Assembly: GCA_964521425.1 (NCBI GenBank)
Contig: CAZFRO010000004.1
Location: 209-64,208, forward strand
Length of the DNA stretch: 64,000 nucleotides
Source: an uncultured bacterium
Lineage (GTDB): Bacteria > Joyebacterota > Joyebacteria > Joyebacterales > Joyebacteraceae
Direction: 5' to 3'
Shown here: positions 1,374 through 57,102 of the stretch, in pieces
How positions within the stretch are numbered: the stretch's first letter is position 1
Layout of the letters: each line of letters begins with the position of its first letter
Program-made: the position numbers and the translations under genes
Notes under the pieces: generated by a model
The model's database searches: none
The model's input: the letters and a program-made list of their open reading frames with translations, nothing else
Told to the model about the DNA's origin: nothing

Positions 1374-2798
1374 GTGGCAAGACTCAAGGGTGGCTACAAC
1401 ATTGGCCTCGCAGGGAGGCCCGCGTCGCGCGTCGTCGACCTTCCGGTTCCGAGCAGGCTTGTTCTGCCGCTTGCGAGCCGGTGTTTCCGCTTTGGCGATA
1501 TCCGTGTAGAAGAGGGCGCCCGCATCTCCGCCGGGACGGTTCTTGCGACCGATCCCAAGCGCTTTTCGGCTCCACTTATCGCCGCGTATGGCGGAACCGT
1601 GCGTCTCGACGGAGTCGCGGACCACTTGGTTCTCGAATCCCTGGACGGGGCGTCATCCAGCGGTTCTTCAGGCGGATCGCCGACGGATGTCCGCGACCGC
1701 CTTGTCTCTCTCGGGGCTTGGCGGTTCATCACCGACGCCCGCACGGACATGCCGGTAGATCCTGCCGCCACTGCGAATGACGTCATCGTCTCCACGGTCC
1801 ATCTCGAACCTTTCGTCGCGAGCGCCGATGCGCTTCTCACGGGGAGGCTCGATTCGTTCGTTCGCGGCCTCAAGCATCTTCATGAGCTTACCCAGGGCGG
1901 CACCGTTCACGTTGCCGTCGCTCAAGATGCGGGATTCGCGACAGAACTCGCGGGCCTCATTACAGAGCACTCCTGGTGCCGGCTCCACACGGTGGTCGCA
2001 CGCTACCCGTCTGGTCACCCACTCGTGATCCTGCGGGCTCTCGGACTTGGCCGCGATCCTGGTCGTCCCGTTTGGGCAATCGGAACAGCAGGCGTCCTGG
2101 CGATTGAAGGAGCGCTCTCATCCGGCGCACCGAGTGTAGAACGCTTGATAGCACTTGGCGGCCCGGCCGTCAGTGAGCCCGTCCATCTCAAAGCTGTCAT
2201 CGGCTATCCCATCGACGAGATCCTTGCGCATCGTCTCTGCCACGAGGATGTGCGCGTAATCAGCGGAGGCATCTTCACGGGCAGTGATGCATCGCCGGGT
2301 TCATCCGGGCTCGATGCCGAGTGCGAAGGGCTTACGGTTCTTCGTGAACTCGGGAAACGCCACATGCTTTCCTTCGCCATGCCGGGGCTCTCGCGAAACT
2401 CCTACGGCAGAACTTTCATGAGCCGCCTCTGTCAGGGCGGCCCGCCGGAGCGTTTGAACACATCCCTTGCGGGGGAACTGAGAGCATGCGTTTCGTGCGG
2501 GGAGTGCATCGATGTCTGCCCGGTCGGGATACTGCCCGGCGTCATTCACAAGTTTCTCCACGCCGACGAGATAGATGAAGTGGAGCGCATGCGTGTAGAC
2601 CTCTGCATCGAGTGCGGTCTCTGCTCCTACGTCTGTCCATCGAAGATAGAGCTTCTCTCTGACATGTGCGATGCCAGGCGACTGATACGCGAGGAGCACG
2701 AGGCTCAGAAGAAGATGGAGCTGAAGGCGAAGCTCGAGGAAGAGAAGAGACTGGCGGCCAAAGAGGCGCTCGCGGCGGAAGAGGAGGCGACAGCATGA
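1374..2798 (+). CDS. nqrA: NqrA/RnfC-family peripheral subunit retaining two [4Fe-4S] motifs
   Basis: GAGGA RBS and GTG 1374. NqrA-like N-terminus (RLKGGYNIGLAGRP). C-terminal CVSCGECIDVCP and CIECGLCSYVCP. First gene of an nqr-ordered operon. Confidence 0.8.
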   Translation: MARLKGGYNIGLAGRPASRVVDLPVPSRLVLPLASRCFRFGDIRVEEGARISAGTVLATDPKRFSAPLIAAYGGTVRLDGVADHLVLESLDGASSSGSSGGSPTDVRDRLVSLGAWRFITDARTDMPVDPAATANDVIVSTVHLEPFVASADALLTGRLDSFVRGLKHLHELTQGGTVHVAVAQDAGFATELAGLITEHSWCRLHTVVARYPSGHPLVILRALGLGRDPGRPVWAIGTAGVLAIEGALSSGAPSVERLIALGGPAVSEPVHLKAVIGYPIDEILAHRLCHEDVRVISGGIFTGSDASPGSSGLDAECEGLTVLRELGKRHMLSFAMPGLSRNSYGRTFMSRLCQGGPPERLNTSLAGELRACVSCGECIDVCPVGILPGVIHKFLHADEIDEVERMRVDLCIECGLCSYVCPSKIELLSDMCDARRLIREEHEAQKKMELKAKLEEEKRLAAKEALAAEEEATA

Positions 2799-3862
2799 AG
2801 TTGATACTGACTCTCCTCGATAAGACGCGGCCGCTCTTTCAGGAAGGCGGGCGTTTCGCCGCAGTCAAACCCATCTACGATGCCGCCGACGCTTTTCTCT
2901 TTTCGCCTCTCACGCGGACATCGCGGGCTCCGCACGTTCGTGACCCCCTCGACGTCAAACGCTACATGTCGACGGTCATCATTGCTATTGCTCCCTGTCT
3001 CCTGGCTGCAGTCCACTTCTTCGGCCTGCGTGTGCTCGCCATGGTGCTCGTCTCGTACGCCGCCGGTGGAGCGGTCGAGGTCCTCCTCGCCATGTTCAAG
3101 AAGGAGGAGATCAACGAAGGGCTTCTCGTTACCGGGATGCTCTTCCCGCTCATCCTGCCTCCAGGGCTACCGCTCTGGATGGTCGCCTTGGGCTCTGCAT
3201 TCGGCGTGCTTGTGGGGAAGGAACTCTTCGGCGGCACAGGCAGGAATCTGTTCAACCCAGCACTCATCGGGCGCGTGTTCCTGGCGCTCAGCTACCCGAA
3301 GGCCATGTCGGCGGGGTGGATCGAGCCCGGGCAGGGGCTCGTCGGCAGGGTGCTCGAGTACGCGACCGACGCCGTGACGATGGCGACGCCTCTGGCTGCC
3401 GCGAAGAGCGGTACGTGGGCGGCGCTACCCAAGCTCTTCTTCGGCAACGTCATCGGCAGCGTGGGGGAGACATCGGCGCTCGCTGTTCTCCTCGGGGGAG
3501 CGTTTCTCCTCATCATAGGGATTGCCAACTGGCGAACCGTTGCGGCGATGCTCGGCACATTCGTCATCGTGACCGCTGGTATCTACAGCGGTGACCCACA
3601 TGCGATCATCTGGCATCTTCTGTCTGGGGGGCTGCTCTTCGGGGCGTTCTTCATGGCGACGGATCCTGTCTCCAGTCCGATCATGAACTCGGCCAAATGG
3701 GTCTACGGCGCGATCATCGGGATCGCGACGGCCCTCATCAGGAATTTCACCGGCTATGTCGAGGGCGTGATGTTCGCGATACTCCTCGGCAACATCTTCG
3801 CGCCTGTCCTGGACGAGTTCTTCGTCACGGCGCATGTTCGGAGGCTTCGTGAAGAAGGGTAG
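2795..3862 (+). CDS. nqrB: NqrB/RnfD-family membrane subunit (covalent FMN)
   Basis: ATGA overlap with the upstream stop. Motifs APHVRD, EGLLVTG, FGGTGRNLFNPAL, DAVTMATPL (FMN-Thr), FMATDPVS, EGVMFAIL. Confidence 0.9.
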   Translation: MKLILTLLDKTRPLFQEGGRFAAVKPIYDAADAFLFSPLTRTSRAPHVRDPLDVKRYMSTVIIAIAPCLLAAVHFFGLRVLAMVLVSYAAGGAVEVLLAMFKKEEINEGLLVTGMLFPLILPPGLPLWMVALGSAFGVLVGKELFGGTGRNLFNPALIGRVFLALSYPKAMSAGWIEPGQGLVGRVLEYATDAVTMATPLAAAKSGTWAALPKLFFGNVIGSVGETSALAVLLGGAFLLIIGIANWRTVAAMLGTFVIVTAGIYSGDPHAIIWHLLSGGLLFGAFFMATDPVSSPIMNSAKWVYGAIIGIATALIRNFTGYVEGVMFAILLGNIFAPVLDEFFVTAHVRRLREEG

Positions 3863-4469
3863 CCTCTATACGGTCTTCTACGCGGCCGTCCTCGGGATCA
3901 TCTGCGCGGTCGCGCTGACCGCGGTCGATCGTTTCACGGACGAGAGAAAGGCCGCTAATGCGCAGGCGGAGGAGGTTCAGAACATCCTGACCGTCCTCGG
4001 CGTGCCCTTTGATGCGCAGGCGAGTGCGTCGGACCTTCTGGCCGTGTATGAATCGATGGTGGGCGAAGAGGAGATTGAGGGGCTCGAGTTCTTCGTGAGC
4101 GATCATCCGGAGGCAGGCAAGCTCCGTGCGATGCGTTTCCACGGACCGGGACTGTGGGGTCCGATCGAGGGACTCATCTGTCTCGAGGAGGACATGCGCA
4201 CGGTCTACGCCATCTCATTCTACAGACATGAAGAGACTCCCGGGCTGGGTGGTGAGATATCTTCCGCGGGCTTCCAGGATCAGTTCCGCGGGAAGGTGAT
4301 TCTAGGACCGTCGGGAGATCCGGGTATCCACCTCGTCAACGACGGCGCCGATCAGATCAACGAGATCGACGCCATCACCGGAGCTACGATGACCTGCGAC
4401 AAGGTCGAGGACATGCTGAGCGAGATCATCGAGAGGATCATTGCGAGGAGCGGGTCCAGTGGCGCCTAG
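3849..4469 (+). CDS. nqrC: NqrC/RnfG-family FMN-binding subunit
   Basis: N-terminal TM anchor; GPGLWGPI, HEETPGLGGEI, IDAITGATMT (FMN-Thr motif). GTG start 3849 inferred. Confidence 0.9.
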   Translation: MKKGSLYTVFYAAVLGIICAVALTAVDRFTDERKAANAQAEEVQNILTVLGVPFDAQASASDLLAVYESMVGEEEIEGLEFFVSDHPEAGKLRAMRFHGPGLWGPIEGLICLEEDMRTVYAISFYRHEETPGLGGEISSAGFQDQFRGKVILGPSGDPGIHLVNDGADQINEIDAITGATMTCDKVEDMLSEIIERIIARSGSSGA

Positions 4470-5133
4470 TCAGAAAGTGGCCTGTGTTACATGCGGAGGA
4501 ACCGGTCCCTGTGATGGGAAGGGTCGGGAGACACTGCGTGCCGGCGTCTGGGTGACCAATCCGGTCTCCGTCCAGGTACTCGGCATCTGTTCCGCTCTGG
4601 CCGTGACGAACAAGCTCGAGAACTCGCTCGTCATGGGTGCCGCCCTCATCTTCGTCGGTGTGGGCACCAACCTGTTCGTGTCGCTTCTCAGAAACGTGAC
4701 ACCGAGGCGCATCCGGATGATAGCGGAGGTGGCCATCATCGCCACATTCGTGATCATCTTCGACCAGATACTCAAGGCGTACTACTGGGAGATGTCGAAG
4801 CAGCTCGGTCCGTACGTCGGTCTCATCATCACGAACTGTATCATCATGGGACGCGCCGAGGCGTTCGCGCTGTCGAACCGCCCGGTTGTGTCGATGCTCG
4901 ATGGCCTCGCCAACGGTCTCGGGTACGCGGTCGTCCTTGGGATCATCGGGTTCGTTCGGGAACTCATGGGAACGGGAGCGCTCTTCGGCCACCGGATTCT
5001 AGGGGCCGAGTGGTACACGCCTAATCAGCTGATGATCCTGGCGCCCGGGGCGTTCATTGCACTCGGTTTCCTGATCGCTCTCTACAATGCGATCACCGGC
5101 ATCAACAAAGAGCTCGAAGGGAAGGGGAGCTAG
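4459..5133 (+). CDS. nqrD: NqrD/RnfE-family membrane subunit
   Basis: NPVSVQVLGICSALAVT, VGLIITNCIIMGRAEAFA, LAPGAF. GAGGAG RBS before GTG 4459. Confidence 0.9.
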   Translation: MAPSQKVACVTCGGTGPCDGKGRETLRAGVWVTNPVSVQVLGICSALAVTNKLENSLVMGAALIFVGVGTNLFVSLLRNVTPRRIRMIAEVAIIATFVIIFDQILKAYYWEMSKQLGPYVGLIITNCIIMGRAEAFALSNRPVVSMLDGLANGLGYAVVLGIIGFVRELMGTGALFGHRILGAEWYTPNQLMILAPGAFIALGFLIALYNAITGINKELEGKGS

Positions 5134-5135
5134 CG

Positions 5136-5726
5136 ATGGGTGAGGTATCACCCCTTATCATCCTCGTAGCTGCGATCTTCACCAACAACATCCTGTTGGC
5201 GAACTTCCTGGGAATGTGCTCGTTCCTCGCGGTCTCGAAGCGCATCGACACCGCGGCCGGACTCGGCGCTGCCGTGATCTTCGTCATGACGTTCACGACT
5301 GCGATCAACTACGGCGTCTATCACCACGTGCTTGTCCCGACGGGGCTCACGTTTCTCTCGTTCATCATCTTCATCGCCGTGATCGCAGCCTTCGTGCAGT
5401 TCGTGGAGATGTTCGTAGAACGCTTCAGCCCGGCGCTCTATCACGCGCTCGGGATCTTCCTGCCGCTCATCACCGTCAACTGTGCGATCCTGGGTGTGTC
5501 ACTCTTCATGATCATCAGGAACTACACATTCATGCAGTCGGTCGCGTTCGGCTTCGGTGGCGGCGTCGGGTGGACGCTGGCGATTGTCCTGATCGCGGGC
5601 TTAAGACAGAAGATGAGATACAGCATCGTCCCGGTTCCATTCAAGGGCGTCGCAATAGCCATGGTCATCACCGGCGTGATGGCAATGGCGTTCATGGGGT
5701 TCGCCGGCATGGTCACGATACAGTAG
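5136..5726 (+). CDS. nqrE: NqrE/RnfA-family membrane subunit
   Basis: FLGMCSFLAVS, LGIFLPLITVNCAILG, MAFMGFAG. Confidence 0.92.
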   Translation: MGEVSPLIILVAAIFTNNILLANFLGMCSFLAVSKRIDTAAGLGAAVIFVMTFTTAINYGVYHHVLVPTGLTFLSFIIFIAVIAAFVQFVEMFVERFSPALYHALGIFLPLITVNCAILGVSLFMIIRNYTFMQSVAFGFGGGVGWTLAIVLIAGLRQKMRYSIVPVPFKGVAIAMVITGVMAMAFMGFAGMVTIQ

Positions 5727-5730
5727 GCGA

Positions 5731-6828
5731 TTGATGATCTTCCTTCTTCCCATACTGGTCTTTGCGGGAATCCTCGTTGCTCTTGCGGTCGCGCTCACGG
5801 TTGCCGAGCGGTTGCTCGTCAACTACGGCATCTGCAAGATCGACATCAACGTGGGGGACCGTGTTCTCGAGGTCGAGGGCGGGCAGACGCTTCTCTCGGC
5901 CCTCATCGAGTCGAAGATCTTCATCCCGTCCGGCTGCGGCGGCCGTGGTTCTTGCGGGTACTGCACCATCGATGTGGTCGTAGGCGGCGGGGCCGTCCTG
6001 CCCACTGAAACGCCGTTTCTGACGCGATCGCAGGTGCGTTCGGGCGTTCGGCTGGCCTGCCAGGTCAAGGTGCGCGAGGATCTCGAGGTCAGAATCCCTG
6101 AGGAACTCCTCAACGTTCAGCTCTTCACGGCCACGGTCGAAAGCGCGCGCACACTGACACACGACATGGTCGAGACTCGCTTCAAGCTCACGGAGCCCGT
6201 GGAGATCGAGCAGCGTCCCGGGCAGTACGTGCAGCTGCAGGCGCCCTCGCCTGAGGGACCTGTCTTTCGCGCCTATTCCATCAGCTCGCCTGCGTACGAG
6301 ACAGACGTCGTCGAGCTGGTCGTTCGCCTGGTGCCCGGGGGGATCGGCTCCACCTATGCGCACAATCTGAACGAAGGGGATCCGATAATCTTCACGGGTC
6401 CGTACGGAGAGTTCCGGTTGAGCGAGGACCCCGAGGCAGAGATCGTCTGCGTCGGCGGCGGCTCGGGCATGGCGCCCTTGAAGAACATCCTCTTCAGTGT
6501 GTGCGAGCGCTGGCCGAACCGGAAGTGCTGGCTCTTCTTTGGTTGCCGCTCGGCGAAGGATGTGTTCTACCTCGACGAGTTCCGGGAGCTTGAGAAGAAG
6601 AACCCGAACTTCCACGTCATCTACGCGCTGTCCGATCCTGATCCTGAGGACGGGGAGTGGAGCGGCGAGACAGGCTTCATCCACATCTCAGTTGACAAGC
6701 ACCTTGAGACTCGCGAAGCGAAGCGGCAGGCGTTCCTCTGCGGTCCACCGCCGATGATCGAGGCCGTCATGAAGATCCTCGATGACAAGGGATTCGAAGA
6801 GGACGACATCTTCTACGACAAGTTCTAG
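5731..6828 (+). CDS. nqrF: NqrF-type NADH-oxidising subunit (TM, 2Fe-2S, FAD, NAD binding)
   Basis: CGGRGSCGYC...RLAC (2Fe-2S), RAYSISS (FAD), GGGSGMAP (NADH), CGPPPM, C-terminal YDKF. Confidence 0.9.
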   Translation: MMIFLLPILVFAGILVALAVALTVAERLLVNYGICKIDINVGDRVLEVEGGQTLLSALIESKIFIPSGCGGRGSCGYCTIDVVVGGGAVLPTETPFLTRSQVRSGVRLACQVKVREDLEVRIPEELLNVQLFTATVESARTLTHDMVETRFKLTEPVEIEQRPGQYVQLQAPSPEGPVFRAYSISSPAYETDVVELVVRLVPGGIGSTYAHNLNEGDPIIFTGPYGEFRLSEDPEAEIVCVGGGSGMAPLKNILFSVCERWPNRKCWLFFGCRSAKDVFYLDEFRELEKKNPNFHVIYALSDPDPEDGEWSGETGFIHISVDKHLETREAKRQAFLCGPPPMIEAVMKILDDKGFEEDDIFYDKF

Positions 6829-6841
6829 AAGGAGAGAGATC

Positions 6842-7294
6842 ATGGCCATCATCACGGTGGCCGACGTGCTGAGGACTGCCGAGGACGTCGAGGCGAAGCT
6901 CGTCGACTACTACGCGGAGATCGCCGAACATGCGACATCGGAGGGCGTCAAGCTTCTCGCGGACTACATGGGGAGGCACCGCCGCCACCTGTCGGAGGCT
7001 CTCGGTCGGCTCGGTGACGCCGAGCGGGAGGAGGTGAGTTCGTTCCCGATCAGGTACGAACCTCTCGCGCCCGACTGCACGTGTTTTGAGGGGCGCGAAC
7101 TTCCTCCGGACGCCACGGCTGCGGAGGTGCTGGACATCGCGATCGAGATCGATGGGTGTCTCATTGACCTGTACCGCCAGGTTCTGACGCAGGACGTTGA
7201 CCAGGAGGTCCAGGATCTCTTTGAGAGCCTGGTCCGGGCTGAGGAACGTGACACCATAGAGCTCAAGAAGATCAAGGCGATGGACTACTTCTAG
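6842..7294 (+). CDS. ferritin/rubrerythrin-like four-helix protein
   Basis: AAGGAG RBS and ATG 6842, 13 bp after nqrF. Two E-x3-E..Y helical repeats with degenerate ExxH motifs. Confidence 0.65.
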   Translation: MAIITVADVLRTAEDVEAKLVDYYAEIAEHATSEGVKLLADYMGRHRRHLSEALGRLGDAEREEVSSFPIRYEPLAPDCTCFEGRELPPDATAAEVLDIAIEIDGCLIDLYRQVLTQDVDQEVQDLFESLVRAEERDTIELKKIKAMDYF

Positions 7295-7321: not shown

Positions 7322-7350
7322 TTGACTGGTTCGGCCAGAGAGCATAGAAT
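7322..7350 (+). promoter_or_regulatory. sigma70-type promoter of the cytochrome operon
   Basis: TTGACT-17 bp-TAGAAT. Confidence 0.7.
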
Positions 7351-7464
7351 ACTGGTCTGAGGCACACTCAGAGGCATGCTGCCGGACCGGATGCGGAGCA
7401 GACGAGCTGACCCGATGGGAAGTTCCAGCGGGCAGGTTTGTCTGATTGTAGGGGGGGGGAGCTT

Positions 7465-8742
7465 ATGACGTTTGGAAAGGTGGGGGCAAGCGCTCTGCTT
7501 GTTCTGCTGATTCTTGCTGTCTCGACTGCTGCATGGGCCGAGTCATCATGCGTCACGTGCCATCGTGACGTCAGTCCGGGACAGGTGGCTGACTGGGAGT
7601 CCAGCAAGCACGCGAAGGTACACGTGAGCTGCGAGGTCTGCCACGGCGACGCCCACACAACGGCCGACGATGCTGCCTCGGTCTCGTTCCCGGATGAGAG
7701 TACTTGCGCCGGGTGCCACGAGGAGCAGTTCGACCAGTTCGTGCAGGGCAAGCACAACATGGGTTGGACCGCGATGAACGCTCTTCCGATTACCCACATC
7801 GAGCCCGATGCGCTCATTGAGGGTGGGAAGGGCTGCGGCGGCTGCCACAACATGGGCATCAAGACCGCCGAGCAGAAGCAGGCCCAGCTCGACATGGGAT
7901 TCCGCTACCAGACGAACTCGTGCGACGAGTGCCACACGCGGCACGCGTTCTCGAAGAAGGAAGCGCAGAACCCGCACGCATGCCAGCAGTGCCACATGGG
8001 CTACGATCATCCCCAGTGGGAGATGTGGGAGAGCTCAAAGCACGGTACACGGTGGCATGCACAGAGCGCCGGTGATCTGCCGGAAGGCGCTGCTGCGCCG
8101 ACCTGCCAGACCTGCCACATGGTCGATGGCGATCACAACAACCACACAGCGTGGGGTTTCCTTGGCGTGAGACTGCCGATGCCCGAGGACGAGCAGTGGG
8201 CGGCCGACAGGGTCGTGATCCTGAAGGCTCTCGGTGTTCTGCATCCTGATACCGGCGAAGCGACCGATCTCGTCGGTGTCGTTCAGGCTGCCGATCTCGC
8301 GCGTCTGACCGAGGAGGCCTGGCAGAGTGAGCGTGACAAGATGATCACGACTTGCAGCCAGTGTCACTCCACAACGTATGCCACCCAGCAGCTGAGCTTG
8401 GGTGATGACATGCTGAGGGACGCCGATCGGCTCATGGCACAGGCTATCGAGATCGTTGGGGATCTGTACCGCGATGGCATTATCGAGAAGCCTGAGGCCT
8501 ATCCGTACAACTACCCGAACTTCCTGTTCTTCATGCAGACGGGTGGCGGCGACATGGACAACCTGTCGTACATCGATCAGGTTCTCTGTCAGATGTACAT
8601 GAAGCATCGGATGCGCGCGTACCAGGGCTTCTTCCACGCCAATCCCGACTATGCCTACTGGTATGGTTGGGCGGGGATGACGAAGGACCTCGGTGAGATC
8701 CAGGAGCTGGCCAGAACGATGCGCGCGACCCACGGGTTGTAG
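7465..8742 (+). CDS. secreted octaheme cytochrome c, hydroxylamine oxidoreductase (Hao)-family
   Basis: Signal peptide. Eight CxxCH motifs (CVTCH, CEVCH, CAGCH, CGGCH, CDECH, CQQCH, CQTCH, CSQCH). Hao-like CHMGYDHPQWEMWESSKHG and C-terminal HANPDYAYWYGW helix region. Confidence 0.85.
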   Translation: MTFGKVGASALLVLLILAVSTAAWAESSCVTCHRDVSPGQVADWESSKHAKVHVSCEVCHGDAHTTADDAASVSFPDESTCAGCHEEQFDQFVQGKHNMGWTAMNALPITHIEPDALIEGGKGCGGCHNMGIKTAEQKQAQLDMGFRYQTNSCDECHTRHAFSKKEAQNPHACQQCHMGYDHPQWEMWESSKHGTRWHAQSAGDLPEGAAAPTCQTCHMVDGDHNNHTAWGFLGVRLPMPEDEQWAADRVVILKALGVLHPDTGEATDLVGVVQAADLARLTEEAWQSERDKMITTCSQCHSTTYATQQLSLGDDMLRDADRLMAQAIEIVGDLYRDGIIEKPEAYPYNYPNFLFFMQTGGGDMDNLSYIDQVLCQMYMKHRMRAYQGFFHANPDYAYWYGWAGMTKDLGEIQELARTMRATHGL

Positions 8743-8770
8743 CCGGTTCCGAATCTGATTTGTGATCGAC

Positions 8771-8800
8771 GAGGGGGCGTTCGTTGTCGAACGTCCCCTC
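8771..8800. other. intercistronic 13-bp hairpin without U-tract (mRNA stability or processing element?)
   Basis: GAGGGGGCGTTCG-TTGT-CGAACGTCCCCTC between the octaheme and monoheme genes. Confidence 0.45.
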
Positions 8801-8882
8801 ATCAGTCCGGACATCTGAATGCCCGAGTGGCGCAGGCACAAAAGGAAAGCGCCTCGCGCGGCATCTGGAGGGAGGTGACAGA

Positions 8883-9323
8883 ATGCGCATGCTGTTTCTT
8901 GTTCTACTCGCGCTCGCCATCGGCCTCGTGCCGGTTCTAGCGGTCGCGGCTGATGCCGAGGCCGAGGAGAAGCCGGTGGAGCTTACCGGCAAGACGATCT
9001 TCGTAGAGAGCAAGTGCGCCATGTGCCACACCGTCTTAGCCGAGGGCATAGGTGAAGTGCCGGAGGACGGCGCGGAAGCCGAAGAGAGCGACGGCCCACC
9101 TGATCTGTCGACCGTTGGCGCCTCGCGCAAGCTCGACTGGCTGCACCTCTTTCTCGTCGAGAAAGAGAAGATCGACGGCGTGAAGCACATGATGAGTTTC
9201 AAGGGCACGGAGGAAGAGTGGACAGTGATGTCCACCTGGCTTCTGAGCCTCGGCGCGCCCGCTGACACGACCGAAGGCGAGACGGAAGCCGCTACTGAAA
9301 CGGGCACACAGACAAGCGAGTAA
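8883..9323 (+). CDS. secreted monoheme cytochrome c
   Basis: GGAGG RBS, signal peptide, CAMCH, distal KHMM (candidate Met ligand). Confidence 0.8.
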   Translation: MRMLFLVLLALAIGLVPVLAVAADAEAEEKPVELTGKTIFVESKCAMCHTVLAEGIGEVPEDGAEAEESDGPPDLSTVGASRKLDWLHLFLVEKEKIDGVKHMMSFKGTEEEWTVMSTWLLSLGAPADTTEGETEAATETGTQTSE

Positions 9324-9329
9324 TCAACC

Positions 9330-9902
9330 GTGATCTACTGGGCACTGGTAGTGGGCGCCGGAGTGCTGATCGTGTTGCTCCTGGTCTTCAGGAGAACGAT
9401 GAAGTCGCTCGCGACGCGCCCCGAGAGGATTCTCGCGTTCCTGGCGATGGCGGTTCTTCCCGCCCTCTGGCTCGCGGGAATGATGGGTTACGCCGACCAC
9501 GAGTTCAAGAAGGTCTCCTTCTGTACGCAGTGTCACGAGATGTGGGAGCACGGTGCGAGCCTCACGAGCGACAGCGATGAGTCTCTGGCTGCCGTGCATT
9601 TCAGGAACAATCTCGTTGATCGGGAGACCGCGTGCTACAAGTGTCACACCCGACCCGGGCTGGCCGGGCTTGTGGAAGCCAAGAAGAAGGGTCTGCACGA
9701 TGTCTACGCCCACTATCTTGGCGAGTCCCCGGAGGTTCTCGAGATCCACGGGGAGTACGATACGCATATCTGTCTGAAGTGTCACGGTGAGGCCGAGAGC
9801 TTCCTCACGGGATGGGGCCATGAGGCGATCCTGGAGGAACTGCAATCGGGTGAGATGTCATGCTTGGAGTGCCACGACGTGGCACATGAACTGGATGGTT
9901 AG
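9330..9902 (+). CDS. NapC/NirT/NrfH-family membrane-anchored tetraheme cytochrome c
   Basis: Two N-terminal TM helices; CTQCH, CYKCH, CLKCH, CLECH; FCxxCHEM pattern. Confidence 0.85.
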   Translation: MIYWALVVGAGVLIVLLLVFRRTMKSLATRPERILAFLAMAVLPALWLAGMMGYADHEFKKVSFCTQCHEMWEHGASLTSDSDESLAAVHFRNNLVDRETACYKCHTRPGLAGLVEAKKKGLHDVYAHYLGESPEVLEIHGEYDTHICLKCHGEAESFLTGWGHEAILEELQSGEMSCLECHDVAHELDG

Positions 9903-9903
9903 T

Positions 9904-10119
9904 ATGAAGAGCATGTGGAAGCCATTCGCCGGCAAACCGCCCGTTCACATCATGCGCTGCGGAGTGCTGGCGCAGGTCTTCGGAATCCTCGTCATGTCGG
10001 TCATGCTGTTCACGAAGATCCCGCTTATCACGGTGATCTGCCTTCCGGCGGGCGCGGCTCTCATTCTGCTCGGATGTCTGATCTGGGCGTGGGCCGTGTA
10101 CTGGGTACCCCAGGACTGA
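9904..10119 (+). CDS. small (71 aa) two-TM membrane protein
   Basis: ATG 1 bp after the tetraheme stop; two hydrophobic stretches. Confidence 0.6.
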   Translation: MKSMWKPFAGKPPVHIMRCGVLAQVFGILVMSVMLFTKIPLITVICLPAGAALILLGCLIWAWAVYWVPQD

Positions 10120-10202
10120 ACCGGCAGGGCGAATGTGACGCGGCAGTCGACCGCTTGAACACGTATGAATGACAACGTCAGTGAGGTCCGCTGTCTTGAA
10201 GG

Positions 10203-10238
10203 AGCCCCGGTGCTAGGCCGGGGCTTCGTTGTGTTTGT
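10203..10238 (+). terminator. intrinsic terminator of the cytochrome operon
   Basis: AGCCCCGG-7-CCGGGGCT followed by a T-rich tail; overlaps the convergent MATE stop. Confidence 0.55.
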
Positions 10239-11841: not shown

Positions 11842-12536
11842 CTACTTGCGACGCCTTCTCACTGCGATGAGGCCTGCAAGGCCCGTGCTCATGAGCAGGA
11901 GTGTTGCCGGCTCGGGCACTGGCGGTACCTCATGGGTGTCGGGCACGAGGATATGGTACTCGATCGAACCATCCGCGGCCGCATCGATCGGATCGTAGTC
12001 ACCCGCCGTGAACCCGGTGTTGAAGGCGGTGTTGAAACCCTGTCCGCCGGCTTCTCCATCCTTGGCGTAGAAGTCACCCCAGACAGGAACGCGGAAGCTG
12101 TCGAATTCAAGGCTGGTATTGAGCCCCCACGCTTCATCAAACTTGATGCCGTAGATATCCTCAGGCATGTTGAAGTTCCCTGACCCGACCTCATGGGTTC
12201 CGATATCGATGCCCTCGAAGTCGCCATGCTCTCCGAAGATGTCGTTCCGGGTGAACGTGTCGGAGACCTCAAGGATGAAATGACTGGTCTCTCCCACCTC
12301 ATGCCCGAAGTAGTAGGCGTAGTGCCAGGAGGTATCCACGTTCTGGGTAACGTTCCACTCAATCCAGATCGAGTTTTCCCCGTGGAACCAGTTGCCGGTT
12401 CCGGTGAGGCCGCCCCCGGTGGGCAGCTACCGGGGCTCCTTCCAATCCTCTATGGACTCGCCGGCGCTAATTCCAGCCACCGCCGCTCACTTTCGAGAAG
12501 GCTAACGGTCAGTAAGATGCTCCACCTTCGCAACAT
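11842..12536 (-). pseudogene. disrupted PEP-CTERM protein
   Basis: C-terminal VPEPATLLLMSTGLAGLIAVRRRRK. RBS, ATG 12536 and a signal peptide lie in another frame (frameshift near 12490). In-frame TAG at 12427-12429. Confidence 0.7.
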
Positions 12537-13062
12537 CTCTTCCCCCTTCCAACACCACGAAGCTCCGTGGTGTTTCAAAAACGGCCCAATAATCTCCATG
12601 GTCTGCCCGTAGACCTCCCTTCGGAAAGCCCACTGCCACGCAGATGTATCCGAGCCGGTTCCGGCCATATTCTGCCTCAGAGTTCAACAGGACAGACCTG
12701 TCACGGGCGGAATAGAGTCGGAGTTCCATGGGAGAGTCGGTCAACAATATCGGTCCTCCGTACAAGGTCTCTCCCAAAGCTGTGACCAACTGGAACACGG
12801 TTTCACTCCCCCAGAGAACACCTTGCTCTGGAGGATCGACATGGAGCCAGAGCCAATCATGAGGATCTGCGAACATGGCCGCATGCCACTTCATCCCTCC
12901 GTGCTCATGGAATCTCATTTCATCCGAAGTGTAGTTCGACCAATAGAGCTTGCGTTCCGAGAACATGCCCTTGACCCGGACAGTCGCCCCCTCTTCGCTC
13001 ACGGTCTCGAACTCATACCCCACACGGCCCCCCTGTGCATCTCTCGGCAGGCAAGAGACCAA
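12502..13062 (-). CDS. hypothetical protein (start uncertain, possibly frameshifted 5' end)
   Basis: 186-aa ORF in a co-oriented cassette; signal-like segment just upstream in frame has no start codon; no recognisable domain. Confidence 0.4.
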   Translation of the reverse strand: MVSCLPRDAQGGRVGYEFETVSEEGATVRVKGMFSERKLYWSNYTSDEMRFHEHGGMKWHAAMFADPHDWLWLHVDPPEQGVLWGSETVFQLVTALGETLYGGPILLTDSPMELRLYSARDRSVLLNSEAEYGRNRLGYICVAVGFPKGGLRADHGDYWAVFETPRSFVVLEGGRDVAKVEHLTDR

Positions 13063-13240
13063 GATGGCAGCGATTGCCGTCGAACGGAACGCAAGTCATC
13101 GGCAGATAGAGCACACCATCCACAGACATAGCCCAGAACGGCTCGCCATCGCACAATCCAGTCCATGGACCAGAAGATGCGCCGATGATGATGGTGCCGC
13201 CAAACAGGATCAGACCTGTCACGATGCGGGCCAGTGTCAT
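13013..13240 (-). CDS. small hypothetical secreted protein
   Basis: ATG 1 bp after the upstream stop; hydrophobic N-terminus. Confidence 0.4.
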   Translation of the reverse strand: MTLARIVTGLILFGGTIIIGASSGPWTGLCDGEPFWAMSVDGVLYLPMTCVPFDGNRCHLGLLPAERCTGGPCGV

Positions 13241-13241
13241 G

Positions 13242-13646
13242 CTATTGCTTCCTCACTTCGCAAGGGCCACCATACAACCCGAGCCACCAGAACATCCCGC
13301 TCTCGCATCGGTCGAGGATATCCTGCTCCACGGTCTCACCTCCGACCGAAAGAATGGTCTTCAAGCGATACCACAACGGGAGGTGGGAATCAGCTGTCAG
13401 GCTGACCGAATGAACCTCTCCCGCTCCGATGTGAATGATGTCAGTGAGGAAATCCTCATACCCGCCGGCGCCGATTTTCCGCTCAATCGTATAGATCACC
13501 CCGACGCCTTCCGGGTAATCATTCCCGAGACTATCAGCTGCCGTGCCATCCCATTCGAATACATGGTCAGGAGACAGACTCACAGCTGCACATCCGATTG
13601 TGGCGACCATCAGAACGATAGCCAATGCCATAACTGCAACACGCAT
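13242..13646 (-). CDS. hypothetical secreted protein or lipoprotein (134 aa)
   Basis: AAGGAGG RBS before ATG 13646; signal peptide MRVAVMALAIVLMVATIGC. This is the real 3' part of the long 13242..14792 shadow ORF. Confidence 0.65.
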   Translation of the reverse strand: MRVAVMALAIVLMVATIGCAAVSLSPDHVFEWDGTAADSLGNDYPEGVGVIYTIERKIGAGGYEDFLTDIIHIGAGEVHSVSLTADSHLPLWYRLKTILSVGGETVEQDILDRCESGMFWWLGLYGGPCEVRKQ

Positions 13647-13718
13647 TAGAGCCTCCTTACTGAACAATTCGAGCGTCCGATCGATCTTCTCTTCGGACTC
13701 CCCGGCTAGGCGATCTGG

Positions 13719-14927
13719 TTGCAATTCCTCACGCACGCGGATGTAGTTGTCCACATATTCCGTGTAGCCTCTGTGCCTCATGGCAATATTGTGCCACCGG
13801 ACAATCTTCCTCAGCGCCCTCACCTTCCGGTCGCTCCATCCGGCGCCACCCTTTTCGAGGCGGGGGAATTCCACATCGGGAACGCGGCCAGTACCGGCTT
13901 TGCAGTCTACGCAACCAGCGTCGGCACGGCCGACTTGATGCGGGGTTATCATAGCGGCACCAGCGGCAACGCAGCTGACCTCGACATTGCCGATGTCGGC
14001 AACAGCTCGGCCGTTGTTGATGCCAGGACAACAGGTGCAGGGCCGGCACACTATGGCGAGACGGCCGGTCCGTACGCGGTCGAGGTGTATTCTGACTATG
14101 AGAGCTTCGACACGCACGTGGTCCACGCGGAGTACACGGTGACGGGCAACCATGACGCCGTAGCGGTCTACGGCTATTCCGTCCCAGCAGATCAATTCGG
14201 GTACGGAGGCTATTTCGAGGGCGGGTACAGGGGAGTGTACGGTAAGGTCATTCCCACAGGGATTGGTGGCTACTACGGAGTGCGCGGTTATGTTAGCGGC
14301 GGCAGCGGGACAAACTACGCCGTCTCCGGCTACGTTGTCGGTGGCGCAACGAACTGGGCCGGCTACTTCAGCGGTAACGTCAGCGTCATCGGCACTCTGT
14401 CCAAGGGCGGCGGTGCGTTCAAGATCGACCACCCCCTCGACCCCGCGAACAAGTACCTCTACCACTCGTTCGTGGAGAGCCCCGATATGATGAACGTGTA
14501 CAACGGCAACGTCGTCCTGGATTCCTCGGGTGAAGCCTGGGTCGAACTCCCGGAATGGTTCGACGCTCTGAACCGGGACTTCCGGTATCAGCTGACCGCT
14601 ATCGGTGCACCCGGTCCTAATCTCTATGTCGCCGACGAGATCTCGGGCAACCGCTTCAAGGTCGCCGGCGGTGACCCAGGCCTCAAGATCTCCTGGCAGG
14701 TGACCGGCATCCGTCAGGACAGGTTCGCCGAGGAGAACCGGATTCCGGTGGAAGAGGTGAAGTCCGACAGGGAGCGCGGCAGGTACATGCATCCCGAGGC
14801 CTACGGCCTACCCCGAACGATGAGCGTCGACTATGACGAGCGGGAGGAACAGCAGCTGGCTGATGAGACAGCGAGCACTCGGAAGCCCCGGTCTGCGACG
14901 GAAGAGGTAGAACCGGACGACGACTAG
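13719..14927 (+). CDS. Gly-rich tail-fibre-like protein with FKIDHPLDP C-terminal domain, probably 5'-truncated
   Basis: GVYG/GYF repeats; FKIDHPLDPANKYLYHSFVESPDMMNVYNG...FRYQLTAIG. No RBS or signal peptide at the 5' end. Confidence 0.65.
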   Translation: MQFLTHADVVVHIFRVASVPHGNIVPPDNLPQRPHLPVAPSGATLFEAGEFHIGNAASTGFAVYATSVGTADLMRGYHSGTSGNAADLDIADVGNSSAVVDARTTGAGPAHYGETAGPYAVEVYSDYESFDTHVVHAEYTVTGNHDAVAVYGYSVPADQFGYGGYFEGGYRGVYGKVIPTGIGGYYGVRGYVSGGSGTNYAVSGYVVGGATNWAGYFSGNVSVIGTLSKGGGAFKIDHPLDPANKYLYHSFVESPDMMNVYNGNVVLDSSGEAWVELPEWFDALNRDFRYQLTAIGAPGPNLYVADEISGNRFKVAGGDPGLKISWQVTGIRQDRFAEENRIPVEEVKSDRERGRYMHPEAYGLPRTMSVDYDEREEQQLADETASTRKPRSATEEVEPDDD

Positions 14928-15049: not shown

Positions 15050-16990
15050 CTACCTGAGAAGCACCGTCTTGCGCGACTGCCGCCACTCGCCGGCGTCCGC
15101 GCGTATGAGGTAGATGCCTGATGCAACGAGTTCACCGCGGTCATCCGTGCCGTCCCACGGCACAGAATGGTCCCCTGCACTCAGGACTCCTGAGACAAGA
15201 GTCTTCACGAGTCTGCCGGAGACATCGAACACAAGCACCCTGGTCGCAGTTGCTGTCGGGAGCGACAGCTGGAGCACCGTAGCGTTCGTGAACGGGTTGG
15301 GCCTGCCTGGAGCGAGCGCAAATCGCGTGGGGTCGGACGGCACCGATGTGCCGCTCAGGGGACATGCACTCAGGTGGATGGTGAGATCGTCTTGCACCAC
15401 TCCACCGACTATGCCCGAAAGGTCGCGCGTGCTGAATGTGAGGATCGCTTCGTAGACAACGCCCGTCGGCGCCGAGACGTCGTCGAATACCACCCCGTAG
15501 TACGCGGGAGTCGATCCTGCTTCCTGGCTGGAGAAACCGCCGGCGATCGAGAAGAACCCTCCGCCGCCCACGATTTCGGCATCGTAGATCTCAAGCAGCG
15601 CTTGGAGGCTGTCGTATTCGAAGTTGTGGATGTCGATTCCCGCCTCGTCGAAATCGCCGGAGTCGTGTGTACCGAAATCGAGAGTGTTGACGAGGAGGAT
15701 CTCCGCCGCCGCAAGCGACGGCGCGGCGTGATTGAGCACCGTTCCAGAGAGAGCGATGCTCGCTGATGGCTGGTCGACATCGTTCGACGACACCGTCAGG
15801 TTACCTGCCTGCGCGCCGGCCGAGGAAGTGCTCATCGAGATAGTGTGTCCGCTGCTTCCACCGGAGGGCTCAGAGAAACCACCGCCGGGTGCTGTGAAAC
15901 CGGAAGGGGCGCCGAACGAGTAGTCGAGATCGTCCGCCGGTGAGATGGCGGAGTTGCCGACAGAGAGGATCTCCTCTGCGGTTGCACCGACGATCACATC
16001 GCCGAAGGCGAGTGATGACACGTAGTCGAGTTTCGCCGGCACCTGGAAGTCCGCGTAGACCGGGATGTGATCGGACGCTTCGTGAAGCGCATCGGCGATG
16101 ACCGACCCCACGGCGTAGTTCGTGCCGTAGTTGATGGCCTGGTTGAAGTGATAGCCGTCATTGCCGTAGGCAACGTGGCTTCCGGAAACGTACGAGAGGC
16201 CGTCACCGTCATCGAGAGCAGCGGAGATAAGAAGCAGGTCGAAACGGTCATCCATCCCGCCCGTTGCGCCTCCGCCGAACTGCGTTGTGCGTGGAGACTG
16301 CGTGTGGATGTACCTGTATGTGTAGCTGTCGTGCCAGGTCCCAGGCTGGTTGATGGGGTCCCACACCCGACCGTTGTTGTTCGCCTCACTTCCCACCAGC
16401 TTCTGGTATGCGGTCTCGGAACTTGCTCTGATGTTGTAATCGCCGGCGATGATGAAGTGGGTGCCGGGATTGTGATTGTTCGTGTGGTTCCTGAGTATCG
16501 TCGCCTCAGCCAGGCGCTTCGTCTTATCCGATGAAGTGGATCCGGCCTTCAAGTGGAGAGAGTAGACCGTGAGCTCCGCATCGGACGAGCTATAGCCTAC
16601 GGGGCGGAGGACGTACTCGGAGATGTTCCTGAGCGCCGTCGATATCTCCTGGTGGGAGATGTAGTCCACGGTGGCCGTGCGGTAGAAGAGGGCATTGTCG
16701 GTATCGTAGCCGTTCACGAACGGCCCGGCTGCGTATGTCCCCGGTACCGTGTAGTTCAGGATATCGTTCAGGAACTGGTTCGTGCCCGTCTGGCTGAGCA
16801 TCTCCTGCACGACGATTATGTCCGCGTCGAGTTCGTCCATGACCGTTACGAAGTCATCCTCACGGGCCGAGCCGGTTGAGCCGGGGAAGTTGAGTACATT
16901 GTACGTGACTACCCTGAGGCCGAGTGCCGTCTGGGGAAGAAGCGTGACGAGCAAGATCGCCACAAGTGTCAGGGCTTTCCCATATCGCAT
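15050..16990 (-). CDS. secreted endonuclease/exonuclease/phosphatase-family protein with Ig-like domains and FlgD-Ig/T9SS-like tail
   Basis: VVTYNVLNF, VVQE, HLKA, AGDYN, DRFD, SDHIPV; tail RPNPF...YLIR...KTVLLR. GGAGAG RBS. Confidence 0.85.
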   Translation of the reverse strand: MRYGKALTLVAILLVTLLPQTALGLRVVTYNVLNFPGSTGSAREDDFVTVMDELDADIIVVQEMLSQTGTNQFLNDILNYTVPGTYAAGPFVNGYDTDNALFYRTATVDYISHQEISTALRNISEYVLRPVGYSSSDAELTVYSLHLKAGSTSSDKTKRLAEATILRNHTNNHNPGTHFIIAGDYNIRASSETAYQKLVGSEANNNGRVWDPINQPGTWHDSYTYRYIHTQSPRTTQFGGGATGGMDDRFDLLLISAALDDGDGLSYVSGSHVAYGNDGYHFNQAINYGTNYAVGSVIADALHEASDHIPVYADFQVPAKLDYVSSLAFGDVIVGATAEEILSVGNSAISPADDLDYSFGAPSGFTAPGGGFSEPSGGSSGHTISMSTSSAGAQAGNLTVSSNDVDQPSASIALSGTVLNHAAPSLAAAEILLVNTLDFGTHDSGDFDEAGIDIHNFEYDSLQALLEIYDAEIVGGGGFFSIAGGFSSQEAGSTPAYYGVVFDDVSAPTGVVYEAILTFSTRDLSGIVGGVVQDDLTIHLSACPLSGTSVPSDPTRFALAPGRPNPFTNATVLQLSLPTATATRVLVFDVSGRLVKTLVSGVLSAGDHSVPWDGTDDRGELVASGIYLIRADAGEWRQSRKTVLLR

Positions 16991-17034
16991 GTATCTCTCC
17001 TGGGGGTGTGGATGGAATATGACTCTATCCTCAT

Positions 17035-17063
17035 AATATACCACAATTAGCACAATCTAGCAA
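17035..17063 (-). promoter_or_regulatory. sigma70-type promoter of the secreted EEP-family gene
   Basis: TTGCTA-17 bp-TATATT with TG extension. Confidence 0.5.
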
Positions 17064-33618: not shown

Positions 33619-33717
33619 CTGTCTCCTCCGTTCTGAACCTGGTTTGCTTCTAATCATGGATCCCATCATCCGGATCCCGCTCAACACTCGCACAATCTAC
33701 GCCGGCCATGCCCAGGG

Positions 33718-54175: not shown

Positions 54176-54223
54176 GCGCTGTCCCGACGGAATCGTTGGC
54201 CAGGCGTCTGTATCGTGTGGAAC

Positions 54224-54256
54224 AAGGGCCCTCGCATGAATCGCGAGGGGGCCCTT
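54224..54256 (+). terminator. intrinsic terminator after the C25 gene
   Basis: AAGGGCCCTCGC...GCGAGGGGGCCCTT. Confidence 0.65.
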
Positions 54257-54281
54257 CTCATCTAACGCAGTAGCCACAAGT

Positions 54282-54335
54282 AAGGTAACAGGTAGTGATA
54301 GGGTAACAGGCACCGGTAGGGCAACGGCCACTGGC
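54282..54335. repeat. three degenerate 18-bp tandem units upstream of the S1 protease gene
   Basis: AAGGTAACAGGTAGTGAT, AGGGTAACAGGCACCGGT, AGGGCAACGGCCACTGGC. Confidence 0.4.
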
Positions 54336-54439
54336 GTTACAGTGCCAATCATGTTATGCTTGTCAAGAAGGGGCAGTTGAGCCTTTGGCTTGCTGCCCGC
54401 TCGTGATTCATCGGTGTCCCCCAATCCTGGAGGTTGTAG

Positions 54440-56950: not shown

Positions 56951-57016
56951 AGACGGGTCAGGTAGAGGCGGGCCGCGTGGGACTCACAGAGCGCGGCGCG
57001 CAAGATAATGCACAGT

Positions 57017-57054
57017 GAAAGGCCGCCCCTGCGTACAGCGGGGGCGGCTCTTTC
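57017..57054. terminator. bidirectional terminator
   Basis: GAAAGGCCGCCCC...GGGGCGGCTCTTTC between convergent genes. Confidence 0.6.
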
Positions 57055-57102
57055 TTGGGTACGCAGGACAGCACGCCTGCCGCTAGCGCAGCACGCCTGC
57101 TA

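Follow-up and report, generated by a model that had tools for sequence, protein, structure and literature searches.

Genes of the Locus

The window analysed here, a 64,000-nucleotide stretch of DNA from an uncultured bacterium of the Joyebacteraceae (GenBank assembly GCA_964521425.1, contig CAZFRO010000004.1, positions 209 to 64,208), encodes a complete operon for a complex of the NQR type (Na+-translocating NADH:quinone oxidoreductase). As the open reading frames (ORFs) and their Pfam and NCBIfam matches show, nqrA to nqrF follow one another in this order across window positions 1374-6828, all on the + strand, and with a gene for a 150-amino-acid (aa) protein behind them they make up seven + strand genes closely packed over 1374-7294. 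Our main concern is subunit A, an NqrA-like protein that keeps both cysteine motifs of the two [4Fe-4S] clusters of RnfC. The features of the locus, with flavin mononucleotide given as FMN, are the following.

1374..2798, + strand: nqrA-like subunit, 474 aa, GTG start; Pfam NQRA_2nd, NQRA_SLBB and Fer4 dicluster domains
2487..2522, + strand: first cluster motif of nqrA, C372-x2-C375-x2-C378-x3-C382-P383; matches the RnfC motif in 8ahx_C, 7zc6_C and 9eri_C
2604..2639, + strand: second cluster motif of nqrA, C411-x2-C414-x2-C417-x3-C421-P422; invariant in 120 homologs
2795..3862, + strand: nqrB-like subunit, 355 aa; PF03116, 346 bits; TIGR01937 nqrB, 332 bits
3834..4469, + strand: nqrC-like FMN-binding subunit, 211 aa, FMN site T-G-A-T185; PF04205 FMN_bind; TIGR01938 nqrC, 118 bits
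~4459..5133, + strand: nqrD-like membrane subunit; NF006777 nqrD, 252.6 bits
5136..5726, + strand: nqrE-like membrane subunit, 196 aa, Cys28 and Cys116; TIGR01940 nqrE, 236 bits
5731..6828, + strand: nqrF-like NADH input subunit, 365 aa; Pfam Fer2, FAD_binding_6 and NAD_binding_1; TIGR01941 nqrF, 286 bits
6842..7294, + strand: gene for a ferritin-like four-helix bundle (AlphaFold2 model and fold match), 150 aa, beginning 14 nt past the nqrF stop

The start of nqrB overlaps the end of nqrA by 4 nt, and the start of nqrD is uncertain between TTG 4441 and GTG 4459, with an AGGAG element 7 nt upstream of the latter. There is no RnfB-like gene in the operon; the sole rnfB of the genome belongs to a separate rnfCDGEAB operon on another contig. 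A first-pass annotation made from the letters of the window had listed the order A-B-C-D-E-F, an NqrF-type input and the absence of RnfB, and all three are borne out by the ORFs and family matches. Subunits B to F fall in Pfam and NCBIfam families shared by Rnf and Nqr, with the Nqr models scoring highest throughout. Five of the six subunits nevertheless score below the NCBIfam equivalog cut-offs (bits over cut-off: A, 188/450 and 147/321; B, 332/349.9; C, 118/144; E, 236/247.55; F, 286/295), and only D lies above (252.6 vs 235). Directly upstream of nqrA, a 199-aa ORF (761-1360, + strand) has a signal-peptide-like N-terminus and no match in Pfam or NCBIfam.

Subunit A Has the NqrA Fold and Both Cluster Motifs

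The best NCBIfam model for subunit A is NqrA, at 188 bits. The middle of the protein aligns with Vibrio cholerae NqrA, and its C-terminus (residues 369-468) aligns with the cluster domain of RnfC in the three structures named above. All eight cluster cysteines are invariant across 120 homologs that are 39-92% identical to the window protein, and by this measure their conservation is far beyond chance; canonical NqrA retains only two of the four cysteines of the second motif. The claim that an NqrA-like subunit here carries two intact CxxCxxCxxxCP motifs is thus confirmed.

In a structural alignment of representatives, the GxGGAGFPT, NGAECEPY and KYPQG elements of RnfC correspond to LGAWRF, VSTVHLEPF and RYPSG in A. 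The substitution of STVHLEPF for NGAECEPY, noticed in the first-pass annotation, was therefore read correctly (VSTVHLEPF aligns with NGAECEPW/Y), and inspection of the FMN/NADH-binding residues likewise finds the motifs lost, with LGAWRF standing where RnfC has GLGGAAFPT. The Complex1_51K model reaches 17 bits on A against a cut-off of 31. The FMN/NADH site of RnfC is evidently lost from A, as it is from canonical NqrA. An insertion of ~35 residues (REFLGF.RPG..R.SYS..FLS) is common to A and canonical NqrA and absent in RnfC. The AlphaFold2 model of A (mean residue confidence, pLDDT, 89.3; predicted template-modelling score, pTM, 0.90) has its best fold match in the Protein Data Bank (PDB) in V. 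cholerae NqrA (7xk3_A; template-modelling (TM) scores 0.79/0.84), followed by RnfC (TM 0.72-0.79).

Subunits B to F Carry Nqr-Type Features

Subunit B has the ~40-residue N-terminal extension of NqrB that is absent in RnfD, together with GG..E, INEG and GGTGRN motifs, and its FMN site reads T-M-A-T198-P-L. Its alignment covers V. cholerae NqrB residues 10-87, and it is short, at 355 aa, because the internal insertion of canonical NqrB (V. cholerae residues 88-124) is absent. The earlier description of B as short in the manner of RnfD holds for the length only: inspection of the quinone-site residues found the NqrB extension and the GG..E motif, neither of which is RnfD-like. The GG..E region (V. 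cholerae G140/G141/E144) is presumably linked to quinone and inhibitor binding. On profile models B scores 332 bits with TIGR01937 nqrB (cut-off 349.9) vs 250 bits with rnfD, and against PDB chains it scores 238 bits with V. cholerae NqrB and 178 bits with RnfD.

The same comparison favours NqrD for subunit D (V. cholerae NqrD, 210 bits; RnfE, 147 bits) and separates the two families less for subunit E (V. cholerae NqrE, 199 bits; RnfA, 187 bits). A comparison of motifs finds the threonine for covalent FMN attachment in B and C and the paired cysteines in D and E; the pair in D for the intramembrane [2Fe-2S] cluster is Cys50 and Cys133 when residues are counted from TTG 4441. Subunit F has an N-terminal transmembrane helix, [2Fe-2S] ligands at Cys69/75/78/110, and RAYS and GGGSGMAP motifs. 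It is also short, lacking a ~29-aa insertion of canonical NqrF in the flavin adenine dinucleotide (FAD) domain.

Distribution of the Iron-Sulfur Type

A protein search returned at least 334 clusters of window-type A, labelled "4Fe-4S dicluster domain-containing protein" by NCBI and "NqrA" by JGI, and among species represented by one genome each, at least 504 stretches encode a relative. The first-pass expectation of similar operons in other anaerobes was sound. The best 80 of these stretches, all from metagenome-assembled or single-amplified genomes (MAGs or SAGs), belong to Eisenbacteria, Planctomycetota (Phycisphaerae, Sedimentisphaerales, Brocadiia, Pirellulales), Calditrichaceae, Fibrobacteria, Lentisphaerae, Verrucomicrobia, Anaerolineales, Bryobacteraceae, Desulfobacteraceae and Bipolaricaulota; the closest among the matches listed is from Eisenbacteria, at 75% identity. 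Judged by these matches, the iron-sulfur (Fe-S) form of NqrA is present in hundreds of species genomes from at least eight phyla, nearly all of them MAGs. Wherever the contig is long enough the related operons read A-B-C-D-E-F with NqrF, and the order is kept in nearly all of ~80 loci.

Scores on TIGR01936 divide NqrA into a canonical class (390-593 bits) in which the cysteine motifs are absent, a Desulfobacteraceae class (282-288 bits) with both motifs, and the window-type class (84-136 bits), also with both. Desulfonema magnum, which is in culture, has an "NqrA" of the Desulfobacteraceae class. Among 151 evenly sampled Planctomycetota species, canonical NqrA occurs in 26, a protein in the window-type score range in 11, and both in one genome. 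A member of the Pirellulaceae (G001) holds a canonical operon at C35:40079 and an Fe-S-type operon at C2:289558, and a member of the Calditrichaceae (G005) holds the two at C28:531 and C27:25464, respectively. The co-occurrence of both forms within single genomes suggests that they are not functionally redundant.

A locus from a Bipolaricaulota MAG (L085:6563-12597) encodes an A-like protein (two motifs, no GGAGFP, KYPQG kept) and a protein like B or RnfD, without homologs of C, D and E; a Rieske protein is encoded upstream, and proteins with Fer2 and RnfB-type "FeS" domains downstream. It looks like a reduced or different module derived from Rnf or Nqr.

Phylogeny and Order of Events

Trees were built from concatenated B+D+E (786 columns) with FastTree (88 taxa) and with IQ-TREE under LG+F+R5 (55 taxa). 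Besides the window-type and the remaining Fe-S loci, the taxa comprised V. cholerae NQR and 13 canonical operons (Planctomycetota, Calditrichota, Desulfobacterota), and the root was placed on six Rnf complexes (that of the window genome itself, Escherichia coli Rsx, Clostridium tetanomorphum, Acetobacterium woodii and two MAGs). The two trees agree; supports are given as SH-aLRT/UFBoot (approximate likelihood ratio test and ultrafast bootstrap). Nqr-like complexes are monophyletic (99.8/100), and a Desulfobacterota Fe-S operon, L102, is the first branch among them (68/93). As its sister the window-type Fe-S clade (99.2/100) has a group that joins the Desulfobacteraceae Fe-S type with all canonical Nqr (100/100), within which canonical Nqr, V. 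cholerae included, is itself monophyletic (98.5/98). The window complex thus lies outside the characterised NQR clade of V. cholerae and its relatives, in a separate clade whose A, B and F subunits are without the derived features of canonical Nqr. A tree of subunit F shows the same split (0.967).

The lengths of the subunits follow the branching. In the window type and L102, B is short and so is F, which at ~363 aa has no FAD-domain insertion, and the Desulfobacteraceae type has B and F already at canonical length with the clusters kept. The A subunits form a graded series, those of L102, L079, L083 and L085 being more RnfC-like in that KYPQG is kept. In L102, L103 (also Desulfobacterota), L079 and L083, A keeps KYPQG and EP(Y/F) and has the Nqr insertion and both clusters' motifs; L102 itself is an A-F operon with a short NqrF.

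Canonical, cofactor-free Nqr arises on these trees from within a grade of Fe-S-bearing lineages. Because cofactor-free NqrA nests among Fe-S-bearing lineages, the clusters are the ancestral state of all Nqr and were lost once. In the scheme that follows, NqrF was gained and the flavin site lost, along with gain of the NqrB extension and the NqrA insertion; insertions were then gained in B and F; and the clusters of canonical NqrA were lost late and a single time. The term "transitional", applied to the complex in the first-pass annotation, is apt in so far as the Rnf-rooted trees place it in an intermediate position. It is misleading for a large and strongly conserved living clade, which is no fleeting intermediate, and is to be read as an ancestral state retained.

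Constraint on the Cluster Domain

Relative to B+D+E, the whole of A evolves at a rate of 1.44 in the Fe-S type, 1.45 in canonical Nqr and 1.08 in Rnf. The ferredoxin domain is the slowest part of Fe-S-type A, at 0.94 times the membrane-core rate, vs 1.14 in canonical NqrA. The former flavin domain evolves at 1.35 in the Fe-S type, 1.48 in canonical NqrA and 1.01 in Rnf. We read these numbers as a sign that the cluster domain is under strong selection and that A has no catalytic-grade site outside it. A hidden substrate site in the former flavin domain was considered and finds no support, only the ferredoxin domain being strongly constrained in this test.

Link to Quinones and the Neighbouring Cytochromes

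The window genome is estimated to be 100% complete. Searches with hidden Markov models found no MqnA/D or MenB in it, tblastn with E. coli sequences gave no match for MenB, MenD, MenF or MenH, and MenE, MenC and UbiE met only generic partial matches; on these searches de novo synthesis of menaquinone was rejected. The genome does contain a MenA-like prenyltransferase, scoring below the NCBIfam cut-off, next to rnf and apbE. There, outside the window (G000, contig C5:50114-57583), a complete canonical rnfCDGEAB, whose RnfC has GLGGAAFPT and NGAECEPW, is followed by the MenA-like gene and a gene for the flavin transferase ApbE. Rnf and the Fe-S-type Nqr are thus used in parallel by this organism.

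Directly downstream of the nqr unit lies a cytochrome module on the + strand (7438..10119), flanked by a promoter-like site at 7322-7350 and a terminator-like site at 10201-10227. The assignments come from Pfam and NCBIfam matches.

7438-8742, + strand: multihaem Hao-like cytochrome
8784-9323, + strand: small cytochrome-like ORF
9330-9902, + strand: NapC/NrfH-type tetrahaem quinol dehydrogenase
9904-10119, + strand: membrane protein, 71 aa

In an Eisenbacteria locus (L005/L007) nqr is likewise followed by genes in this order, and a MenA-like gene comes next. The module is a probable downstream partner of Nqr. A NapC/NrfH-type quinol dehydrogenase and a MenA-like enzyme in a genome without Mqn or Men implies either salvage of a quinone precursor or an unknown carrier. 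Elsewhere in the window (31912-33693, - strand) is a gene for a hybrid-cluster protein (Prismane/Hcp, 559 bits), which fits the Hao-like cytochrome beside nqr; Hcp is a marker of anaerobic nitrosative-stress or hydroxylamine metabolism.

The wider sample shows a similar pattern. A known menaquinone pathway (MqnA/D or a true MenB) is found in 20 of the 63 window-type holders vs 25 of the 26 canonical holders (Fisher p = 1e-8, a value that ignores shared ancestry and MAG completeness). Among the 43 window-type holders without such a pathway, 38 have a MenA-like gene (85-219 bits vs a cut-off of 264), and such a gene stands beside nqr in at least 11 cases. These associations make a prenylated membrane carrier the likely acceptor, which may not be ordinary menaquinone.

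Accessory Genes

The 150-aa gene stands directly after nqrF in 12 further loci from several phyla, adjoins nqr on the opposite strand in L066, and has a weak match in L041. Its product has no Pfam or NCBIfam family above cut-off, and the AlphaFold2 model (pLDDT 86.9) finds only a weak best fold match, the ferritin-like TM1526 (TM 0.57, E 7.5e-4). The protein was considered as a rubrerythrin-type acceptor and rejected, as Pfam Rubrerythrin stays below cut-off (E = 0.009), conserved ExxH pairs are missing and the fold match is weak. Present in a minority of loci, it is retained as an accessory gene.

Five other loci hold a peptide cassette, either inserted between nqrE and nqrF or placed right behind the operon (L004:13395-15906; L018:7356-9941; L029:6335-8907; L033:13928-16316; L051:~12350-14772); it is absent from the window genome. 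The peptide has a PqqA-like leader and an invariant C-terminus, W.KP.L(E/Q)DVSG(K/E)VMAQPYIRFT, with no match to a curated family, and its genes also occur at two contig ends. Alongside it are encoded a PqqD chaperone, a radical S-adenosylmethionine (SAM) enzyme whose best match, at 142 bits and short of the cut-off, is the mycofactocin maturase MftC, and a MenA-like UbiA prenyltransferase. Mqn and MenB are absent in four of five tested genomes with the cassette or its peptide gene. From its gene content the cassette could make a peptide-derived, prenylated redox cofactor. We found no description of this PqqD/UbiA cassette in the openly accessible literature.

A FlgD_ig-type domain forms the C-terminus of several large secreted enzymes encoded elsewhere in the window (15050-17053 and 49307-62179), namely a C25 gingipain-like protease, a trypsin-like protease, a PPAD-like deiminase and an endo/exonuclease-phosphatase protein. 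The domain looks like a shared secretion tail in an organism of the Fibrobacteres-Chlorobi-Bacteroidetes (FCB) group, of Eisenbacteria type.

Proposed Mechanism and Alternatives

We consider it probable that the complex belongs to an early branch, pumps ions at the expense of NADH and passes the electrons to a prenylated membrane carrier, the clusters of A being in redox contact with riboflavin. As a six-subunit, ion-translocating oxidoreductase of the NQR type, it would follow an electron path suggested by the conserved cofactor motifs and by homology to solved NQR and Rnf structures. Electrons from NADH would enter through FAD and the [2Fe-2S] cluster in F, pass to the intramembrane [2Fe-2S] cluster between D and E, and from there by way of the covalent FMN in C to the covalent FMN and riboflavin in B. 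In solved Rnf complexes, the clusters corresponding to those in A take electrons from the riboflavin of the D/B-type subunit (PMC12174285). If this geometry, with the clusters beside the B/D-type riboflavin, is kept, the two [4Fe-4S] clusters of A must exchange electrons with riboflavin; they would then be redox-active and serve as a relay or buffer at the A-B interface, the putative site of acceptor reduction. The acceptor would most likely be a prenylated carrier made by the orphan MenA-like prenyltransferase, its head group coming from a salvaged naphthoquinone precursor or being of another kind, rather than de novo menaquinone. In the window genome the neighbouring NapC/NrfH-type cytochrome module would re-oxidise this carrier.

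Several points weigh against this proposal. The analysis shows anatomy, conservation, phylogeny and genomic associations; the binding of clusters, the path of the electrons, their acceptor and the ion that is pumped are inferences. Relative to B+D+E, the whole of A evolves as fast as cofactor-free canonical NqrA, and the rate of its former flavin domain (1.35 vs 1.01 in Rnf) gives no sign of a catalytic-grade substrate site outside the ferredoxin domain. The association with menaquinone pathways takes no account of shared ancestry and MAG completeness, and the Fe-S holders are mostly anaerobic Phycisphaerae-like organisms, the canonical holders mostly Pirellulales-like. A menaquinone pathway is in fact present in twenty Fe-S holders, and canonical NQR of the Bacteroides type works with menaquinone and has no clusters. 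The MenA-like matches fall below the NCBIfam cut-offs, so their substrate may be another than that of MenA. Finally, the clusters could be structural or off-pathway.

This last point leads to a simpler account, in which the complex is an ordinary Na+-NQR acting as NADH:menaquinone oxidoreductase, riboflavin passes electrons to an NqrB-bound quinone, and the clusters of A are a structural or off-pathway relic that stabilises the C-terminal domain docked on B, for which the off-path N7 cluster of some complex I enzymes offers a parallel. Such an enzyme would explain why B keeps all NqrB-type features, why the overall rate of A relative to the membrane core equals that of cofactor-free NqrA, and why a NapC/NrfH quinol dehydrogenase adjoins the operon; canonical NqrA, moreover, has the same fold without clusters, which are hence dispensable for the architecture. 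A relic sits poorly, however, with eight cysteines that are invariant in at least eight phyla and three separate lineages, with a ferredoxin domain under tighter constraint than the rest of A and than its counterpart in canonical NqrA, and with the 43 of 63 holders that have no known menaquinone pathway. A cluster beside riboflavin, if the Rnf geometry holds, also cannot stay redox-silent. We regard the account as rather unlikely, though one to be taken seriously. The missing pathways would be explained, at the window genome as well as at those 43 holders, if the clusters of A instead passed electrons to a soluble, non-quinone acceptor in the cytoplasm with a higher potential than NADH, for which a small redox protein or the ferritin-like protein encoded alongside would be candidates. 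The ferritin-like gene directly after nqrF in 12 further loci would agree with such a pump, as would the finding that electrons on the riboflavin of Rnf have no way out other than these clusters (PMC12174285). But the MenA-like prenyltransferase found in 38 of the 43 holders, repeatedly beside nqr, and the retained NqrB-type features point to the membrane, the ferritin-like protein, encoded in a minority of loci, shows no conserved pairs of diiron ligands, and constraint on the former flavin domain of A falls short of catalytic grade. A soluble acceptor thus seems distinctly improbable. The first-pass annotation had suggested an output that may run through Fe-S to an acceptor other than the canonical quinone site; the holders that mostly have no known menaquinone pathway speak for this, and the NqrB features, the nqr-linked MenA-like and NapC/NrfH genes and a flavin domain of A evolving as fast as that of cofactor-free NqrA speak against it, so that the suggestion is not established.

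Still less credence, indeed almost none, can be given to a variant Rnf, that is, a ferredoxin:NAD+ oxidoreductase in which NqrF stands in for the functions of RnfB and RnfC, ferredoxin docks on A and NAD+ is reduced at F. The RnfC-type clusters kept in A and the nearly equal scores of E on RnfA and NqrE are what such an enzyme would predict. Flow from A to F would oppose the exergonic direction of the Rnf and NQR chain and could thus not conserve energy, the operon has no RnfB, and we rejected the proposal on the complete canonical rnfCDGEAB already present elsewhere in the genome and on the placement of all subunits within the Nqr clade (99.8/100).

Within our preferred interpretation, of an NADH-driven pump that reduces a prenylated carrier, an unlikely extension is that the Fe-S-type NQR is perhaps no menaquinone reductase at all, the clusters of A being the exit to another prenylated carrier, which the orphan MenA-like enzyme would make and which may be peptide-derived in several lineages. 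We take the binding of quinone by isolated V. cholerae NqrA to be disputed; should the different-carrier reading hold, the disputed binding might, on an equally doubtful footing, be left over from an ancestral site at which the clusters supplied an acceptor.

Relation to Known Complexes and Implications

The window complex shares with V. cholerae Na+-NQR the six genes in order, the NqrF input, the covalent-FMN sites in B and C, the paired cysteines in D and E, the NqrB extension with GG..E, and an A subunit of the same fold (TM 0.79/0.84) that has the NqrA insertion and has lost the FMN/NADH motifs. It differs in that V. cholerae NqrA has no cofactor (PMC12174285, PMC4014512), while window A keeps two [4Fe-4S] motifs; in the absence of the B insertion (V. 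cholerae residues 88-124) and of the ~29-aa insertion in the FAD domain of F; and in forming a separate clade, in a host without a known pathway to a quinone head group. With Rnf (RnfABCDGE; PDB 7ZC6, 8AHX, 9ERI) it has in common the C-terminal domain of the C/A subunit with its two CxxCxxCxxxCP motifs and the membrane core (D/B, G/C, E/D, A/E), and the order rnfCDGEA matches nqrABCDE; unlike Rnf, it is without RnfB and the GxGGAGFPT, NGAECEPY and KYPQG elements and has NqrF and the Nqr-type extension of B. The Desulfobacteraceae-type Nqr (Desulfonema magnum, annotated as plain NqrA-F) also has both [4Fe-4S] motifs and NqrF, but is sister to canonical Nqr (100/100), has canonical insertions in B and F, and scores with its A subunit above the window type on TIGR01936 (282-288 vs 84-136 bits). 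The Rnf of Desulfobacula toluolica Tol2 is described as having a large, NAD-binding RnfB and an RnfC without NADH and SLBB domains (PMC5109826). By this description it resembles the window complex in a C/A subunit that has no NADH binding and needs another partner, and differs from it in keeping an (enlarged) RnfB and having no NqrF.

That NqrA has no cofactor and has lost the cysteines is stated both by Reyes-Prieto 2014 (PMC4014512) and by a 2025 review (PMC12174285), and the former's model of NQR origin assumes that the RnfC clusters decayed once RnfB was lost (PMC4014512). We found no statement or description of an Fe-S-bearing NqrA in the openly accessible literature. The complexes described here are living and widespread, and in them NqrF has been recruited and the NADH/FMN site is gone with the cluster motifs strictly conserved, which gives the order of events. 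To our knowledge, NqrA is the one NQR subunit without a cofactor and without an agreed function, and its role becomes experimentally approachable because at least one holder of the Fe-S form, Desulfonema magnum, is in culture.

The names under which these proteins stand in databases also mean that metabolic reconstructions of MAGs from Planctomycetota, Eisenbacteria, Lentisphaerota, Desulfobacterota and others assume an ordinary NADH:quinone reductase, even though most of the holders treated in this way have no known pathway to a quinone head group. If the acceptor were a new membrane carrier, models of energy conservation in many sediment anaerobes would change.

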